Shown piece by piece: positions 872-63,989 of a stretch of 64,000 nt of DNA. Position 1 is the first letter of the stretch. Every line of letters starts with the position of its first letter. The translations under genes and the position numbers were made by a program. The DNA is taken from NCBI GenBank assembly GCA_031549565.1, contig JAVBPO010000054.1:20322-84321 (forward strand), in the 5' to 3' direction. Below the pieces are notes generated by a model that was given only the letters and a program-made list of their open reading frames with translations, was not told the origin of the DNA and did not search any database. This DNA is from Thermoguttaceae bacterium. Lineage in GTDB: Bacteria; Planctomycetota; Planctomycetia; Pirellulales; Thermoguttaceae.

Positions 872-939
872 AGATAATAGGTGATAAGTGATAGGTGATA
901 CTAAACAAGTAATCACTTATCACCTATCATCTATCACTT
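872..939. repeat. Heptamer array hairpin, unit [G/A]GTGATA and its reverse complement
   Basis: GATAATA GGTGATA AGTGATA GGTGATA (872-899) faces TATCACT TATCACC TATCATC TATCACT (911-939). 13-bp perfect core GGTGATAAGTGAT / ATCACTTATCACC. Confidence 0.85.
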
Positions 940-941
940 AA

Positions 942-1178
942 TTATTGTTGGTTCGTCTTTTCCGCTTTCATTTCGTTCATATAGCTTTCTTCCTTCGACA
1001 GAGGATATTGCGGGCCGGTCGGGAAGTACTGAACCCGTTGCTTCGTCCACTGCGGGCTGGGGAGCGTCATACCGTTGGTGTGAACGGTGCAACCGATCGA
1101 GGAAAGTGTTCCGAAAAGAATCGTTCCCCCCACCACCGTAAGAACCCAGCGTCCGACAATTTTTTTCACGCGATCCAT
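942..1178 (-). CDS. Small putative lipoprotein
   Basis: 78-aa ORF with an N-terminal signal peptide ending in the lipobox-like 'LSSIGC'. No recognisable domain. Confidence 0.5.
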   Translation of the reverse strand: MDRVKKIVGRWVLTVVGGTILFGTLSSIGCTVHTNGMTLPSPQWTKQRVQYFPTGPQYPLSKEESYMNEMKAEKTNQQ

Positions 1179-1431
1179 CGCTCAATCTCCTTAGAAAATA
1201 CGCTTAAACATTGGAAAAAAAGGTGATCTTTCATCGTAAGCCGTAAAATCGCCGTCGATTGCGGAACAGACCACTCATCTTCAAAATCTCTATCGTCGAA
1301 TCCCTACAAACGTCTTGAGTCGCATATTCGGAATATTTTATTTTTTTAGAATTGCGGGCATAACCGGGCTGTAAGAGGGGACCGGCGTATTGGCGGTTTT
1401 AATCTGCTTATTCCTGCGTACTTAACCAGGA

Positions 1432-2172
1432 TTAGCGTGCACAACAATGGTCGTGTCGGATCATCCGGATTCCATCGGATCCGTAAATCTCGCTGATCAT
1501 CCGGCCGTCCAAGGCCGAAGTCGGGTGGACCGCGACCGTACGATTGACGCAGATTACGCTCTTAACCAACCGGGACACGAACCCGATGTCGTGAGAAACG
1601 AGAATGATCGTGAGCTTCTTGTTCAATTCGCCGAGAATGTCGAACAGAATTTCTTCCGACGACGGATCGATGTTGCTGGTCGGCTCGTCGAGCAAAAGAA
1701 GTTCCGGATCCGAACAAAGCGCCCGGGCGATGAGCACCCGTTGACGCTGTCCGCCGGACAGTTTACGGAACGATGCGTTTTTCATCTCGGCCAACCGCAT
1801 CGTTTCCAACGCTCTTTCCGCCGCCGCTTTGTCCGCTTGGTCGTATCGGATTTTATACGAATCCCCCCGGAGTCGTCCCATCAGGACGACATCGAACACC
1901 GAAACCGGAAAACAGTAATCGACCTGGAGAAATTGAGGCGTGTATCCGACTCTTTCCCGGGTCCGTTTGGGAGCGTCCCCGAAAAGCAGGACCGATCCCT
2001 TTTGCGGCGTCAAGAGCCCGAGCATGAGCTTGAGCATCGTCGTCTTTCCGCCGCCGTTGGGCCCAACGATCGACGCAAAGTCTCCCCGCGGAATCGAAAG
2101 AGAAACCTCTTCCAAAACCGGCTGTTGCTCGTAAGCGAAGGAAACCGATTGAAATTCTACGACGGTCGGCAT
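1432..2172 (-). CDS. ABC transporter ATP-binding protein (metal-uptake/ZnuC-like subfamily), no adjacent permease
   Basis: Walker A 'GPNGGGKTT', ABC signature 'LSGGQRQR', Walker B 'LLLLDEPTS', H-loop 'VSHD'. Start chosen at MPTVVEF (CAT 2170-2172) rather than the track start at 2229. Confidence 0.9.
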   Translation of the reverse strand: MPTVVEFQSVSFAYEQQPVLEEVSLSIPRGDFASIVGPNGGGKTTMLKLMLGLLTPQKGSVLLFGDAPKRTRERVGYTPQFLQVDYCFPVSVFDVVLMGRLRGDSYKIRYDQADKAAAERALETMRLAEMKNASFRKLSGGQRQRVLIARALCSDPELLLLDEPTSNIDPSSEEILFDILGELNKKLTIILVSHDIGFVSRLVKSVICVNRTVAVHPTSALDGRMISEIYGSDGIRMIRHDHCCAR

Positions 2173-2280
2173 GGGATCAAATGAGCATCTCGATTTATTC
2201 CAGGGAGTGTGGACGCCTCGCCCGCACATCGCATGTTTTCAAGTATCAAAAAAAGTTTTGATATTGGGATGCTAATCATA

Positions 2281-2400
2281 AAGGCTGTACACTGTAGGCT
2301 TTAGGCTGTAGTTTCCAAAGAGATTTTTTTCTGAAATGAAATGTAACCTGTTCTATCAATCGCTCTGAATTACCATTGAATTCCTATAGCCTATAGCCTT
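2281..2400. repeat. Heptamer arrays GGCTGTA-type (2281-2311) and reverse complement CCTATAG x2 (2383-2400)
   Basis: AAGGCTG TACACTG TAGGCTT TAGGCTG TAG ... CCTATAG CCTATAG CCTT. Same unit family as 46416-46510 and 60129-60151. Confidence 0.7.
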
Positions 2401-2670
2401 TACTCAAACTGTAAACGATAGGCCGTAATCTTAATCCCAAGAAGCTCGAAGCGGAAGGCATCCCTATCTTCGTCTTTACAAAAGTCGGGCGGTGAGGCTA
2501 TAATAGGCATGGCGGCCTTGCTGAAGCTGGCTGCTTGGTGGGAATTGCGTGTTTCCCGCGCCCGTTCACCTCTTGAAGGAGAAGAATCATGTCCGAACAA
2601 GGAAGTCGGCCTGTCCCCCCCCCGCCTTGCGGAAAGAAGTGTCGTTCCGCTCAATCAACTTTGGAGCCGG

Positions 2671-2955
2671 CTGAGACCGGAAAGACGGCAGCAGACGTTG
2701 CATCTGCCGGCAAACATCGTGGCTCGGCACGTCGAGCACGAAGTTCCGAAGTGCGATTTTTGCGACAAGGAATTCCAACGGGTCGGTGAAGAACGTTCCG
2801 AACAGCTTCATTTCAAGCCGATGGAACTGTTCGTCGTCGTGACGATCTTGTGCAAATACATCGCGACGTGCGATTGTTCCGAAAAACGAAGCGAGACGGT
2901 CGAATCTCCGATTCGGGCTGTCGATCGCGGTGTCGCCGGGAATTCGTTGGTCGCG
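2671..2955 (+). pseudogene. IS66-family transposase N-terminal (zinc-finger) fragment; DDE catalytic domain absent
   Basis: Part of track ORF 2509..3219. 'LPANIVARHVEHEVPKCDFCDKEFQRVGEERSEQLHFKPMELFVVVTILCKYIATCDC...PIRAVDRGVAGNSLVA' follows the IS66 TnpC pattern LP..R..v.H..p..C..C...l..iGe..SEqL.y.P....V.....KY.C..C....P....i.rG.aG..LlA. The pattern then stops abruptly. Confidence 0.45.
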
Positions 2956-62250: not shown

Positions 62251-62359
62251 TCGAATCAGAGCCGCGCACGAAGTAAGCGGTAATGTGGTTTACGGAGTAT
62301 CAAACCTCGTGGTGCTTTGCACTCGAATACCGCTTACTACGTGCGCGGCTCTGATTCGA
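62251..62359. mobile_element. MITE/REP-like palindromic element, copy 2 (32-bp terminal inverted repeats, 31/32 match)
   Basis: TCGAATCAGAGCCGCGCACGAAGTAAGCGGTA (62251-62282) versus the reverse complement of TACCGCTTACTACGTGCGCGGCTCTGATTCGA (62328-62359). 45-nt spacer, no ORF. Confidence 0.7.
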
Positions 62360-62400
62360 AGGGAGGCCTTTCGACCATTCATAATTAGTAATTAATTCCT

Positions 62401-63381
62401 ATGTTTCCCGTTTCCCGATTACGTCGTCTTCGCTATTCGCCCGCTGTTCGTCGGCTTGTCCAGGAAACGATTCTCGTTCCCGAACGGCTGATTTTGCCGC
62501 TTTTCGTACGAAGCGGGAAAAGCGTCCGCACTCCGATCGCGTCGATGCCTGGCGTGTTCCAGCTTTCGATCGACGAGTTCGTCAAAGACGTGAAAGAAGC
62601 CGCGTCGCTCGGAATCGGGGGCGTTCTCCTGTTCGGCATTCCCGACGCCAAAGACGCCGTCGGTTCCGACGCGATGAGCGACGACGGTATCATTGCCCGA
62701 GCGATCCGGGTCGCCAAGGAAGCCGTCGGGGACACGTTGCCGATCATTACCGACGTCTGCTTCTGCGAATACACCGACCACGGGCACTGCGGCGTGCTCG
62801 AAGGCCATGATGTCCACAACGACCGGACGCTGGAAAACCTTGCCCGGCAGGTGCAGGTTCAAGCCCGGGCCGGCGTCGATATCGTTGCGCCGAGCGGAAT
62901 GATGGACGGCATGATCCGCGCGATCCGAACCGGTTTGGACGCCGAAGGATTCGAAAAGATTCCGATCCTCAGCTACGCCGCGAAATACGCCGGAGCGTTT
63001 TACGGGCCGTTCCGTGACGCCGCGGAAAGCGCCCCCCGATTCGGCGATCGACGAACGTACCAGATGGACCCCGCCGCATCCCCCGGCCAGGCGATTCGGG
63101 AAGTCGCCCTCGATCTGGAAGAAGGAGCCGATATGATCATGATCAAACCGGCACTTGCGTATTTGGACATTATTCGAATGGTTCGCGACCGGTTCGAGGG
63201 GGTGCCGCTGGCCGCATACAACGTCTCCGGCGAATACAGCATGGTCAAAGCGGCGGCGCAAAACGGTTGGATCGACGAACAACGGGTCGTGCTCGAATCC
63301 CTGACCGCGATCACCCGGGCCGGCGCGAATATCATTTTAACGTACTGGGCCAAGGACGTCGCACGTTGGTTGGATATTTGA
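62401..63381 (+). CDS. hemB: Porphobilinogen synthase (delta-aminolevulinate dehydratase), Zn-type
   Basis: 'RLRRLR', Cys-rich metal site '[14 protein letters not shown]', '[11 protein letters not shown]', 'YNVSGEYSM', 'ILTYWA'. Confidence 0.93.
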
Positions 63382-63432
63382 ACACCCGACATTCCGTTTA
63401 ACCCGAGCACCGCAGGTGCCGGCGTCATCATC

Positions 63433-63612
63433 ATGTCCGAAAAAACCGTCGCCATTAACTGGATCAACCAATGGAAAACCACCGGCCCTGCGCTGCGCGA
63501 GATTTTCATCAAGGAACTTCAACGTCCCGATTACGCACGAAAAATCGACCAATTGGCTTCTCTGCTCAACTGGGCTTGCGCTCATGCCCCGCCGAAACGC
63601 TTTCCGGTTTAG
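63433..63612 (+). CDS. Possible 59-aa small protein (below the ORF-track cutoff)
   Basis: Hand-translated: MSEKTVAINWINQWKTTGPALREIFIKELQRPDYARKIDQLASLLNWACAHAPPKRFPV*. Balanced composition, better than the overlapping 86-aa track ORF. No homology evidence. Confidence 0.3.
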   Translation: MSEKTVAINWINQWKTTGPALREIFIKELQRPDYARKIDQLASLLNWACAHAPPKRFPV

Positions 63613-63693
63613 TCGAACAGCAAAAGTATTTTCGAACGCTTTACGAACTGCAAAAAAATCCTTGGAAAAGGAGTAAGCGTTTCCGGTGTTATG

Positions 63694-63822
63694 GAGTGTG
63701 GGCGCCTCGCCAGCACAGGAAAAGCTCGGGGCTTGGTTTGCATAGGTAGTCTCCACTTGTGAAAATGGAGTAATGTGTCCAAATGTTCGCCTGCCTCACG
63801 TGCGGGCGAGGCGCCCACGCTC
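63694..63822. repeat. 129-nt element with 18-bp (17/18) terminal inverted repeats
   Basis: GAGTGTGGGCGCCTCGCC (63694-63711) / GGCGAGGCGCCCACGCTC (63805-63822). Internal hairpin CTCCA-CTTGTGAAAA-TGGAG. Confidence 0.75.
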
Positions 63823-63947
63823 TATACTGTGAACGGGTCGAAAATGGTCGTTTTGATGAACCGGTCCGCCTTGGTCGGAAAACCTTATTTTCACCTTATT
63901 TTGTTTGACAAAACAACCTCAGTAGCCGAAAGTATGAATGATAAACA

Positions 63948-63989
63948 ACCTTATTACCTTATTAAAAATCCGGAATAAGGTAATAAGGT
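63948..63989. repeat. Period-8 hairpin ACCTTATT x2 / AATAAGGT x2, terminator-like
   Basis: Perfect 16-bp stem (63948-63963 / 63974-63989), loop AAAAATCCGG, followed by CTTTGTTTTCG. Further direct copies ACCTTATTTTCACCTTATTTTG lie near 63883-63904. Confidence 0.75.

Follow-up and report, generated by a model that had tools for sequence, protein, structure and literature searches.

What are the tandem 7-nucleotide (nt) repeats that occur in the spacers of a Thermoguttaceae genome, and could they have a role there? The question is raised by a 64,000-nt stretch of contig JAVBPO010000054.1 from a Thermoguttaceae bacterium (the whole stretch is called the window below), in which a preliminary description, made from the letters alone, had noted head-to-tail heptamer arrays built from a shared set of units. 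They had been likened to the short tandemly repeated repetitive (STRR) sequences of cyanobacteria, reportedly described by Mazel and colleagues in 1990. The preference of bacterial long simple repeats for a 7-nt unit, and the function of STRR sequences, have been an open question since about 1990, and research on the matter has centred almost entirely on cyanobacteria, apart from isolated reports in Xanthomonas, Beggiatoaceae and Bacteroidetes. The evidence set out below leads us to favour, with moderate confidence, the reading that the arrays belong to a system of lineage-restricted, short, dispersed mosaic intergenic repeats. In this system heptamer arrays are interleaved with palindromes that resemble repetitive extragenic palindromic (REP) sequences and their doublets able to form hairpins (REPINs), and the whole probably serves as modules of untranslated regions (UTRs) at the RNA level.

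Heptamer arrays in non-coding DNA

Arrays were detected with Tandem Repeats Finder (TRF) and with a separate period scan at a stringent and a looser threshold, which recovered essentially all of the intergenic period-7 arrays of the preliminary description. The stringent scan returned seven arrays at period 7, four at period 14 (a harmonic) and none at any other period from 4 to 15; 20 dinucleotide-preserving shuffles gave none. At the looser threshold there were 18 period-7 arrays, 16 of them in non-coding DNA, versus 0–2 for other periods and 0.05 in shuffles that were matched in composition and kept coding and non-coding DNA separate. Only period 7 is thus over-represented. A uniform TRF pass over the window gave 23 period-7 arrays, or 0.36 per kb.

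The intergenic bias of the arrays is equally clear. With coding and non-coding DNA divided according to a curated gene map of the window, arrays make up 696 of 8395 non-coding bases (8.3%) and 106 of 55605 coding bases (0.19%), a 43-fold enrichment. The sharing of a small unit vocabulary among unlinked loci is also well founded: ten pairs of arrays at different loci have identical consensus units (null mean 0.8, maximum 4), and 22 such pairs differ by at most one mismatch (null mean 4.9, maximum 12). However, the statement that intergenic DNA is assembled from these arrays was too strong. Among spacers of at least 60 nt, 12 of 31 bear arrays, only four spacers exceed 60% array content, and a recount of array spacers gives 12–13 in place of at least 14.

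Array blocks lie nearer to gene ends than expected from uniform placement within spacers, with moderate significance (P ~0.008) and with the first start codon taken in each open reading frame (ORF), a choice that favours this result. The stop codons of the genes at 9025..10737 and 46488..46973 do lie inside arrays. Close contact with start codons, described as 0–5 nt for four genes, was found at cca (0 nt) and at the GH16 gene (3 nt); at the GTPase gene the distance is 6 nt, and at hemB there is only a weak pair. With distances of 10 nt for the gene starting at 14038 and 12 nt for that starting at 46403, start-proximal arrays are a subset of all arrays. Two ORFs that run through arrays, 8790..9074 and 534..923, are spurious. 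By spacer type, arrays occur in 2 of 6 convergent, 4 of 10–11 divergent and 6 of 14–15 tandem spacers (33–40%), and these similar rates leave no terminator-like or promoter-like positional signature.

The source of the window is a metagenome-assembled genome (MAG), and the arrays might have been artefacts of short-read metagenome assembly, particularly as the longest of them (143 nt, 31192–31334) is near read length and may have been given a wrong copy number. Run SRR23967707, however, has an independent Logan assembly that is 100% identical to the window over 1578 nt (62331–63908), a REPIN arm and repeats included, and three assemblies contain the arrays of a related species (L003, below), two of these assemblies being from separate metagenome samples. 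The flanks of the window's arrays are also unique and their variant units specific, and most arrays, at under 50 nt, are far shorter than a read. An artefact is therefore extremely improbable, and copy number is in doubt only for the 143-nt array.

Copied modules, hairpins and palindromes

The repeats can be sorted into three classes (Table 1). Class A comprises GC-balanced units, GGCT[G/A]TA, GTAGTC[A/G], CAGGAG[T/A] and [A/G]GTGATA, arranged as inverted pairs; class B, the most abundant family, comprises ATTT[C/G]T[T/C] with the variants ATTTCAC and ATTTCTT; class C comprises palindromes that are interleaved with the heptamer arrays and were not listed in the preliminary description.

Several arrays at separate loci share more than their unit. 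The segment 2281–2315 is identical to the reverse complement of 46477–46511 at 33 of 35 positions, including both flanks (AA..., ...GTTTC), and in both segments the non-consensus units ACTGTAG and GCTWTAG stand in matching order; the partner arms of this pair have CCTAYAGCCTTTMAC in common. In the same way, TTSAGGAGTCAGG...CAGGAGTCAGG(A)ACCT is common to 28473–28504 and 60078–60108, AGTCAGRAACCTCATTTCTYATTTGTYATTT is common to 27542–27573 and 28494–28525, and 27519–27553 is matched, with its GAAACC flank, by 13938–13969 and by the reverse complement of 13993–14027. The genes flanking the copied modules are unrelated. Common flanks and a common order of variant units at loci with unrelated neighbours mean that the modules were dispersed by copying and not born independently. 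The arms are unequal in length: 46416–46460 has 6.4 perfect units and its homologue 2383–2399 only 2.4, while the opposite arm, 46481–46510, is imperfect. On this sequence evidence, array modules have been copied between spacers and then resized by slippage; gene conversion may be an alternative route of copying. The modular re-use of units, which had been held to be unexplained, is accounted for by copied mosaic elements of the REP or bacterial interspersed mosaic element (BIME) type, given the shared flanks and variant-unit order, and the mosaic REP/BIME organisation is the closest analogy for these modules.

The inverted pairs previously described are real at 877/912, 2282/2383, 13939/14002, 27505/27609, 46416/46481 and 60090/60129, with weaker pairs at 13353/13400 and 31192/31377. 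Class A pairs fold into predicted stems of ~20–34 bp. The free energies (dG) are −29.7 kcal/mol for 868–945 (hairpin H1, z −7.2), −50 kcal/mol for 13930–14040 (H3, z −6.4) and −54 kcal/mol for 46401–46515 (minus strand, z −8.1); less extreme z values were obtained for 2275–2405 (H2, −31.0 kcal/mol, z −2.9), 27498–27638 (H4, −36.2 kcal/mol, z −2.5) and 60072–60183 (H9, −34.6 kcal/mol, z −2.85). The proposal that transcripts of the arrays fold into long hairpins thus holds for the GC-balanced pairs but not for the abundant ATTTNTN family, whose regions are unstructured (z +0.9 and +0.4). In six of six class A pairs the G-rich arm is 5' and the C-rich arm 3'. A palindrome of this kind is identical on both strands, so the C-rich, G-poor arm always faces the flanking start and the G-rich arm the flanking stop. 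For the same reason we withdrew a selected orientation with the G-rich arm first along transcription; the sole informative fact about orientation is the exclusive use of one palindrome type.

Strong hairpins near gene ends might be intrinsic (Rho-independent) terminators, and H1 and a period-8 hairpin (Table 1) do lie past gene ends and have moderately U-rich 3' flanks. No heptamer hairpin in the window was called as an intrinsic terminator, though, and terminator-like sites are at chance level (33 versus 29.8 expected). Hairpins H3 and H8 are followed by C-rich sequence and no U tracts, and divergent spacers, which contain promoters, hold half of the hairpins, all of which makes termination a very unlikely role for the inverted pairs. 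Promoter scans of the window were at chance level or empty, and the sole above-threshold match to Rfam 15 in the window was a tRNA-Glu at 35079–35152, with no match to an array.

In five of six cases a class B array precedes a start codon and has its T-rich strand as the sense strand, and each copy of a class C motif adjoins a class B array. This 22–28-nt CGCT-rich motif, (A)ACGCTCGCTTMCGCTTCYCGCTCTGWTT, has five copies in the window versus none expected, and two of the copies, at 28571 and priA, reach the start codon or stop a few nt short of it. A second palindromic module, AATCAGAGCCGCGCACGAAGTAAGCGGTA, matches the ends of the motif, and the combined modules make three inverted doublets, at 40653/40814, 47882/47975 and 62254/62348. 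An exact-core search of the window found six occurrences of the AATCAGAGC...GTAAGCG module, plus three singletons of the CGCT type. Two of the doublets fold very stably (62240–62370, dG −83 kcal/mol, z −12.2; 47875–47990, dG −51 kcal/mol, z −7.2). Short, extragenic, palindromic and multicopy, the class C elements are REP/REPIN-like. The tetramer GTAG is present in two of six REP-like copies (CGTAGTAAGCGG), and two class A units, GTAGTCA and GGCTGTAG, contain it too. Neither tblastn nor Pfam found a Y1_Tnp homologue or REP-associated tyrosine transposase (RAYT) in the 64-kb window.

Table 1. Coordinates of arrays and palindromic elements in the window (xN, number of tandem units)
Position	Strand	Class	Feature	Evidence
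877..900	+	A	[A/G]GTGATA x3.4; G-rich left arm of H1	TRF, scan, fold
912..936	+	A	ATCACCT x3.7; C-rich right arm of H1	TRF, scan, fold
2282..2311	+	A	AGGCTGT x4.3; flanks AA...GTTTC; left arm of H2	TRF, fold, match to reverse complement of 46477–46511 (33/35)
2383..2399	+	A	CCTATAG x2.4, then CCTTTAC flank; right arm of H2	TRF, flank comparison
8921..8942	+	C	22-nt CGCT motif; REP-like singleton; abuts ATTTNTN array	5 copies versus 0 expected
8940..9029	+	B	ATTT[C/G]T[T/C] x12.9; holds stop of gene 9025..10737 (−)	TRF, scan
12326..12354	+		CTATCCT x4 inside N-terminal coding region of 12317..13345	TRF, scan
13353..13427	+		Weak AT-rich GTAATTN inverted pair (13353–13366 / 13400–13413); convergent spacer	TRF, scan
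13939..13967	+	A	GTAGTC[A/G] x4; G-rich left arm of H3	TRF, scan, fold
14002..14027	+	A	CTACTGA x3.7; C-rich right arm of H3; 10 nt before ATG 14038	TRF, fold
27502..27548	+	A	CAGGAGN grading into GTAGTCA x5, then GAAACC flank; 2–4 nt past stop at 27500	TRF
27553..27594	+	B	ATTTNTN x6	TRF, scan
27609..27632	+	A	CCTGACT x3.4, reverse complement of CAGGAGT; closes H4; 3 nt before GH16 ATG 27636	fold
28477..28501	+	A	AGGAGTC x3.6; 4 nt past GH16 stop; module as at 60078–60108	TRF
28504..28538	+	B	ATTT[C/G]T[T/C] x5; junction AACCTCATTTC common with 27550	TRF, flank comparison
28543..28570	+	C	CGCT / REP-like singleton ending at ATG 28571 of dihydroorotase-like gene	
31192..31334	−	B	(ATTTCAC)n(ATTTCTT)n, ~20 units; cca sense strand; abuts cca start 31193	TRF, scan
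31377..31396	+	B	TATTTC[C/T] x2.9	TRF, scan
31400..31430	+	C	CGCT / REP-like singleton	
40653..40822		C	REP-like inverted doublet upstream of priA; arms 40653–40680 and 40795–40822, 96% complementary	
40728..40790		B	Degenerate ATTTGTT array enclosed by the doublet 40653..40822	TRF
46416..46460	+	A	AGGCTGT x6.4, perfect; C-rich arm on sense (−) strand, 12 nt before start 46403	TRF, scan, fold
46481..46510	+	A	CTACAGC x4.3, imperfect; holds stop of 46488..46973 (−); copy of 2281–2315	TRF
47882..47983		C	REPIN-like doublet; arms AATCAGAGCCGC...GTAAGCGG	fold
59862..59886	+		AATTATG x3.6; 6 nt upstream of GTPase start (59855, − strand)	TRF, scan
60079..60106	+	A	CAGGAGT / CAGGCTT x4; left arm of H9	TRF, fold
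60129..60151	+	A	CCTGA then AGCCTAT x2.6; right arm of H9; 29 nt before ATG 60181	TRF, fold
62249..62361		C	REPIN-like doublet between peroxiredoxin gene and hemB; REP shared with relative L023 (93–96% identity)	
62377..62400	+		Weak TAATTAG / TAATTAA pair ending at hemB ATG	Sequence reading; undetected by TRF or period scan
63948..63989	+		Period-8 inverted pair ACCTTATT x2 / AATAAGGT x2; hairpin	TRF, fold (z −5.2)

Some repeats fall outside the three classes. The GTAATTN family of the preliminary description is present but weak at 13352–13425 and 62377–62400. The period-8 pair at 63948–63989 means that non-heptamer hairpin arrays exist too; it is of the opposite arm type, with the C-rich arm 5' and the G-rich arm 3', and a period-11 direct repeat (ACCTTATTTTC x2) lies beside it within 63882–63989. 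The CTATCCT array at 12326–12354 would encode a signal-peptide-like LSTILYSLSSIL in a squalene-cyclase-like protein, and the true start of 12317..13345 may be further downstream than annotated. At 8858–8902 there is a purine-only G/A tract with a period of ~8 and four G-runs of at least 3, giving it G-quadruplex potential on the + strand; it is ~300 nt upstream of the start of the gene for a 1297-residue FG-GAP protein (4666..8559, − strand). An inverted repeat with 35-nt arms, 86% complementary (19638–19672 / 19736–19770), separates two giant HZS_alpha/cytochrome-c genes. Two regions of ~915 nt each, 517–1431 and 39905–40822, contain no convincing gene, and each holds a hairpin or REP element; the ORFs within them have low G+C at third codon positions and no Pfam match, and the regions gave no Rfam hit.

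Distribution and persistence among relatives

The window was rightly described as planctomycete-type. It has 55% G+C, and its proteins include DUF6807, NPCBM, HZS_alpha with cytochrome c giants, FG-GAP and the N_methyl motif. For the dihydroorotase-like gene the nearest genomes are Thermoguttaceae MAGs with 76% and 68% identity (L002 and L003, respectively), and those homologues of hemB and cca that are named carry the labels Thermoguttaceae, Planctomycetaceae or Planctomycetia.

Period-7 arrays were found in few of these relatives. L003, with 66% G+C, has eight (0.38 per kb), whose units, GAAGGAT, ACTCGCC, GGAGTCG, GGTTGAG, GAGAAGG and AACTCCC, differ from those of the window. L002 has two, of the GGGATAG type (0.29 per kb), along with REPIN-like doublets of its own, and L017 (86% hemB identity) has one short array (0.22 per kb). 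Ten other loci, ~170 kb that include one labelled Thermoguttaceae MAG and one Myxococcales outgroup, contain a single period-7 array in total (0–0.05 per kb). The arrays are therefore patchy, a property of a sub-lineage and not general to planctomycetes. The layout in L003 is as in the window, with the stop codon followed by a G-rich array and a C-rich one reaching the ATG (for example ...AACTCCTTACTCCCC ATG), and different unit families are concatenated there too. In L002, degenerate CCCTATC/CCCCATT arrays with the complements GGGATAG/GGGAATG (the GGGNATN type of Xanthomonas and Nostoc) lie at 1071–1105, 1998–2045 and 5253–5287; one inverted array pair brackets a whole gene of 187 codons, and the species-specific REPIN-like doublets flank a pyrC-like gene.

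Orthologous spacers upstream of cca were compared in three further relatives, L021, L022 and L023, with cca protein identities of 78–80% and ~16 kb sampled. In L021, ATTTCTCA x2.4 fills the 33-nt spacer before cca, and TTTCTCA arrays are also found in front of a DJ-1/PfpI gene (4.4 units) and past the stop codon of another gene. In L023, whose cca protein is only 78% identical to that of the window, the spacer holds a REPIN doublet (1983–2058) with arms 93% and 96% identical to the window REP, then TCATTTC x2.9, so that the order from REP-like element through ATTTC array to cca start is identical in the two. L022 (80% identity) has no array before cca, class A units were not found in the ~16 kb sampled, and an alignment of the cca upstream regions contained nothing informative outside the array itself. 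The presence of class B arrays in L021 and L023, and of the REP module in L023, makes both older than the species. Their conservation exceeds what would be expected of neutral spacer DNA at such divergence, and array length evolves quickly: the ATTTCTC-family array has 20 copies in the window, 2.4 in L021 and 2.9 in L023. A GC-rich stem-loop, CTCTTGCTCCAGGCCGGGGCGAGGG, is conserved at the 5' end of the cca coding region (31135–31161, − strand, in the window; 2159–2183, + strand, in L023) and is flagged as terminator-like by the scan.

Such differences in copy number are also what phase-variable or contingency repeats would give, where slippage between promoter and start tunes or switches expression; 7-bp repeats upstream of the hmw genes of Haemophilus influenzae are a precedent. 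Arrays do occupy the interval from the likely promoter region to the start codon, and some are perfect, suggesting recent slippage. Most arrays, however, are short (3–6 units) and imperfect. Two weaker arguments point the same way: the neighbouring genes are housekeeping ones (cca, dihydroorotase-like, priA, hemB and a ferredoxin-type oxidoreductase) and do not belong to the surface or restriction-modification type, and three arrays are the same in L003 and L007, strains that differ elsewhere. L003, L006 and L007 are 99.9–100% identical, with few differences, all outside arrays; the unchanged arrays come from near-identical strains and are almost uninformative on length polymorphism. Phase variation is in our view highly improbable.

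One relative, L012, a Thermoguttaceae MAG devoid of heptamer arrays, carries a RAYT-type Y1 transposase gene (9220..9675) directly upstream of hemB. REPIN-like doublets of its own, GCCGGAAAGGAGGCGGTACTCCGCCGTATTGACGG..., stand on either side of the gene (8833–10000) and are different from the window REPs.

Possible roles and known repeat systems

Of 42 genes in the window, only 6 have a Shine–Dalgarno-like core within the 20 nt that precede the start codon. Array-free leaders are pyrimidine-rich, with more C than G (mean skew −0.11; 19 of 30), and C is enriched at positions −1 to −3 (0.36–0.40 versus a background of 0.22), often as CTCCC or CCCC right before the ATG; the enrichment is seen in L003 too. 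On the favoured reading, the array elements would be tolerated, and would probably act at the RNA level as UTR modules, in a host that barely uses Shine–Dalgarno sites, and they would persist at sites, and in forms, compatible with G-poor leaders. By analogy with REP/BIME stem-loops, class A hairpins may shield upstream mRNA from 3' exonucleases; they may also couple, stall or throttle translation of neighbouring cistrons. In E. coli, REPs stabilise mRNA, and ribosomes stall at stop-proximal REPs. Two spacers, 27501–27635 and 46404–46487, fit ribosome stalling or coupling because their hairpins span the stop to the next start: the 5' arm begins at the stop codon or within it, and 1–13 nt lie between the end of the 3' arm and the next start. 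Class B arrays would form unstructured, G-poor, U-rich leaders whose length varies between species.

The main rival to this reading is that the arrays are functionless, being neutral or selfish by-products of slippage that favours 7-nt units and of occasional copying by recombination or a transposase into harmless spacers. Slippage as the source was hypothesised by Mrazek et al. 2007 (quoted in PMC4679880 and PMC4692102), and one arm of a pair can evidently expand without its partner. A number of our observations weigh against a functional system of the kind we favour. Arrays are patchy even among close relatives, with 0.3–0.4 per kb in three genomes and about none in the ten other loci, and their units differ between species. 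They are equally frequent in all spacer types, and this even spread over convergent, divergent and tandem spacers suits indifferent insertion as well as function. The L003 spacers fold no better than shuffles (z −1.6 to +0.8), so hairpin formation by its G-rich and C-rich arrays is not a conserved requirement. The plus-strand (possibly replication) orientation of class B arrays is also 5 of 6 and is inseparable from their orientation to transcription. The window yielded no transposase and no other gene for mobilisation, and the sample consists of 64 kb of this genome and ~50 kb from array-bearing relatives. On the other hand, neutrality sits poorly with the ATTTCTC array kept before cca in three species at 78–80% protein identity, with a REP retained at 93–96% identity, with the single arm type of all six hairpins and with the bias of arrays towards gene ends (P ~0.008). 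A purely neutral or selfish origin is a serious possibility that we nonetheless consider rather doubtful.

The arrays could instead be sites for a single-strand nucleic-acid-binding protein of the cold-shock or S1 type, with an oligonucleotide/oligosaccharide-binding (OB) fold, that reads them in a 7-nt register and regulates the adjacent genes post-transcriptionally. The strict period of 7, the placement of several arrays 0–6 nt from start codons, the near absence of Shine–Dalgarno usage and the conservation of the ATTTCTC array before cca across species are all consistent with this, and the same proposal, with one CspB molecule per heptamer, was made for TAACTGA repeats (PMC4679880). But the presence of at least six unrelated units in one genome and of others in its relatives is hard to square with one sequence-specific reader, and many arrays are distant from starts or follow stop codons, which makes this explanation unlikely. 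A joint scheme for a sub-lineage with next to no Shine–Dalgarno sites, in which hairpins that reach from a stop to the next start couple or gate translation of adjoining cistrons, U-rich ATTTNTN leaders of tunable length are read in a 7-nt register by an OB-fold RNA-binding protein and the modules are spread by a RAYT-like single-strand transposase via the GTAG of class A units, the whole forming a cis-regulatory code, strikes us as improbable to a like degree.

How far the arrays are new can be judged from known systems. The term STRR-like is apt as a description: as in STRR sequences and other heptameric long simple sequence repeats (SSRs), 7-nt units stand head to tail, are strongly intergenic and belong to few families found at many loci, with a sporadic phylogenetic distribution and length differences between relatives. 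It is not apt as a family assignment, as the host here belongs to the Planctomycetota (Thermoguttaceae), the units are different and partly species-specific, and CCCCAGT, TTGGTCA and CAACAGT, the canonical STRR1–3 units of heterocystous cyanobacteria, have no tandem occurrence in the window or the relatives. The intergenic arrays of Xanthomonas (GGGAATC) and Nostoc (GGGGA(T/C)T) include inverted pairs and vary in length between related species (Rehm et al. 2015, PMC4692102). Ours are likewise intergenic heptamers, some in inverted pairs able to form stem-loops, and lie between the same genes in related species with extensive variation in length and sequence. Unlike those G-rich, G-quadruplex-forming repeats, the main units here contain no G-run of at least 3 in any of the window's unit consensuses, and GGGAATC and GGGGAYT do not occur in tandem in the window; only the tract at 8858–8902, with its four G-runs, and the GGGATAG-type arrays of L002 resemble them.

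TAACTGA arrays lie a few nt upstream of starts in marine Beggiatoaceae, some cyanobacteria and Bacteroidetes (MacGregor 2015, PMC4679880). The likeness extends to other heptamer arrays in the same spacers and, as we infer, to lineages with weak Shine–Dalgarno usage. That system, however, has one dominant unit, mostly in 2–6 copies, whereas the window has at least six unit families, many arrays that form hairpin pairs or adjoin stop codons, and TAACTGA itself only as two single copies and no tandem ones.

REP, BIME and REPIN elements are similar to the repeats of the window in being short, extragenic and dispersed by copying, in their inverted doublets with long hairpins and mosaic modules, and in forming species-specific families that persist within lineages; the AATCAGAGC...GTAAGCGG doublets of the window fit the description directly. 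REP and REPIN sequences have been explained as RAYT-mobilised elements (Bertels & Rainey 2011, PMC3116915), and GTAG-tagged REPs are known in planctomycetes including R. baltica (Di Nocera et al. 2013, PMC3733652). They differ from the present case in that class A arms are themselves tandem heptamer arrays, not a single imperfect palindrome, and in that no cognate RAYT gene was found in the 64-kb window.

The novelty implied at first was accordingly too high. Heptamers were the most abundant class of long SSRs in most genomes surveyed by Mrazek et al. 2007 (as quoted in PMC4679880 and PMC4692102), and inverted pairs and proximity to starts had already been described (PMC4692102, PMC4679880). 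Every individual feature has a precedent, and the window represents a new lineage for a known phenomenon, not a new system. No paper on such heptamer arrays in a planctomycete was found in the searchable literature, the coverage of which is incomplete; in the survey of Huang and Mrazek (PMC4060949), only G-rich patterns were flagged in the planctomycete Isosphaera. What is new is the Thermoguttaceae lineage itself, heptamer arrays that travel as flanked modules with REP-like elements, the single arm type, and an ATTTC array upstream of cca in three related species. A distant, independent lineage with the same syndrome gives comparative leverage. One family here offers array-rich genomes, array-free sisters and orthologous spacers of differing copy number, a contrast that permits tests of co-occurring proteins and of the rate of array turnover. 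In practice, arrays and REPIN-like hairpins will break short-read assemblies and can mislead the calling of start codons and small ORFs in planctomycete MAGs.

Two further features of the window concern other genes. A 26-nt tandem repeat at 32110–32162, with the palindrome ACGACA..TGTCGT, overlaps the best promoter-like sequence of its region (TTGACA-17-TAATAT). It stands shortly before genes of the BlaI/MecI repressor type (32193..32573) and the BlaR1 type (32570..34936), and is probably the operator. The ORF at 54327–56306 joins an MqnC/CofH-like radical-SAM enzyme to a prepilin-type N_methyl motif (residues 385–409), and is probably two genes read as one.

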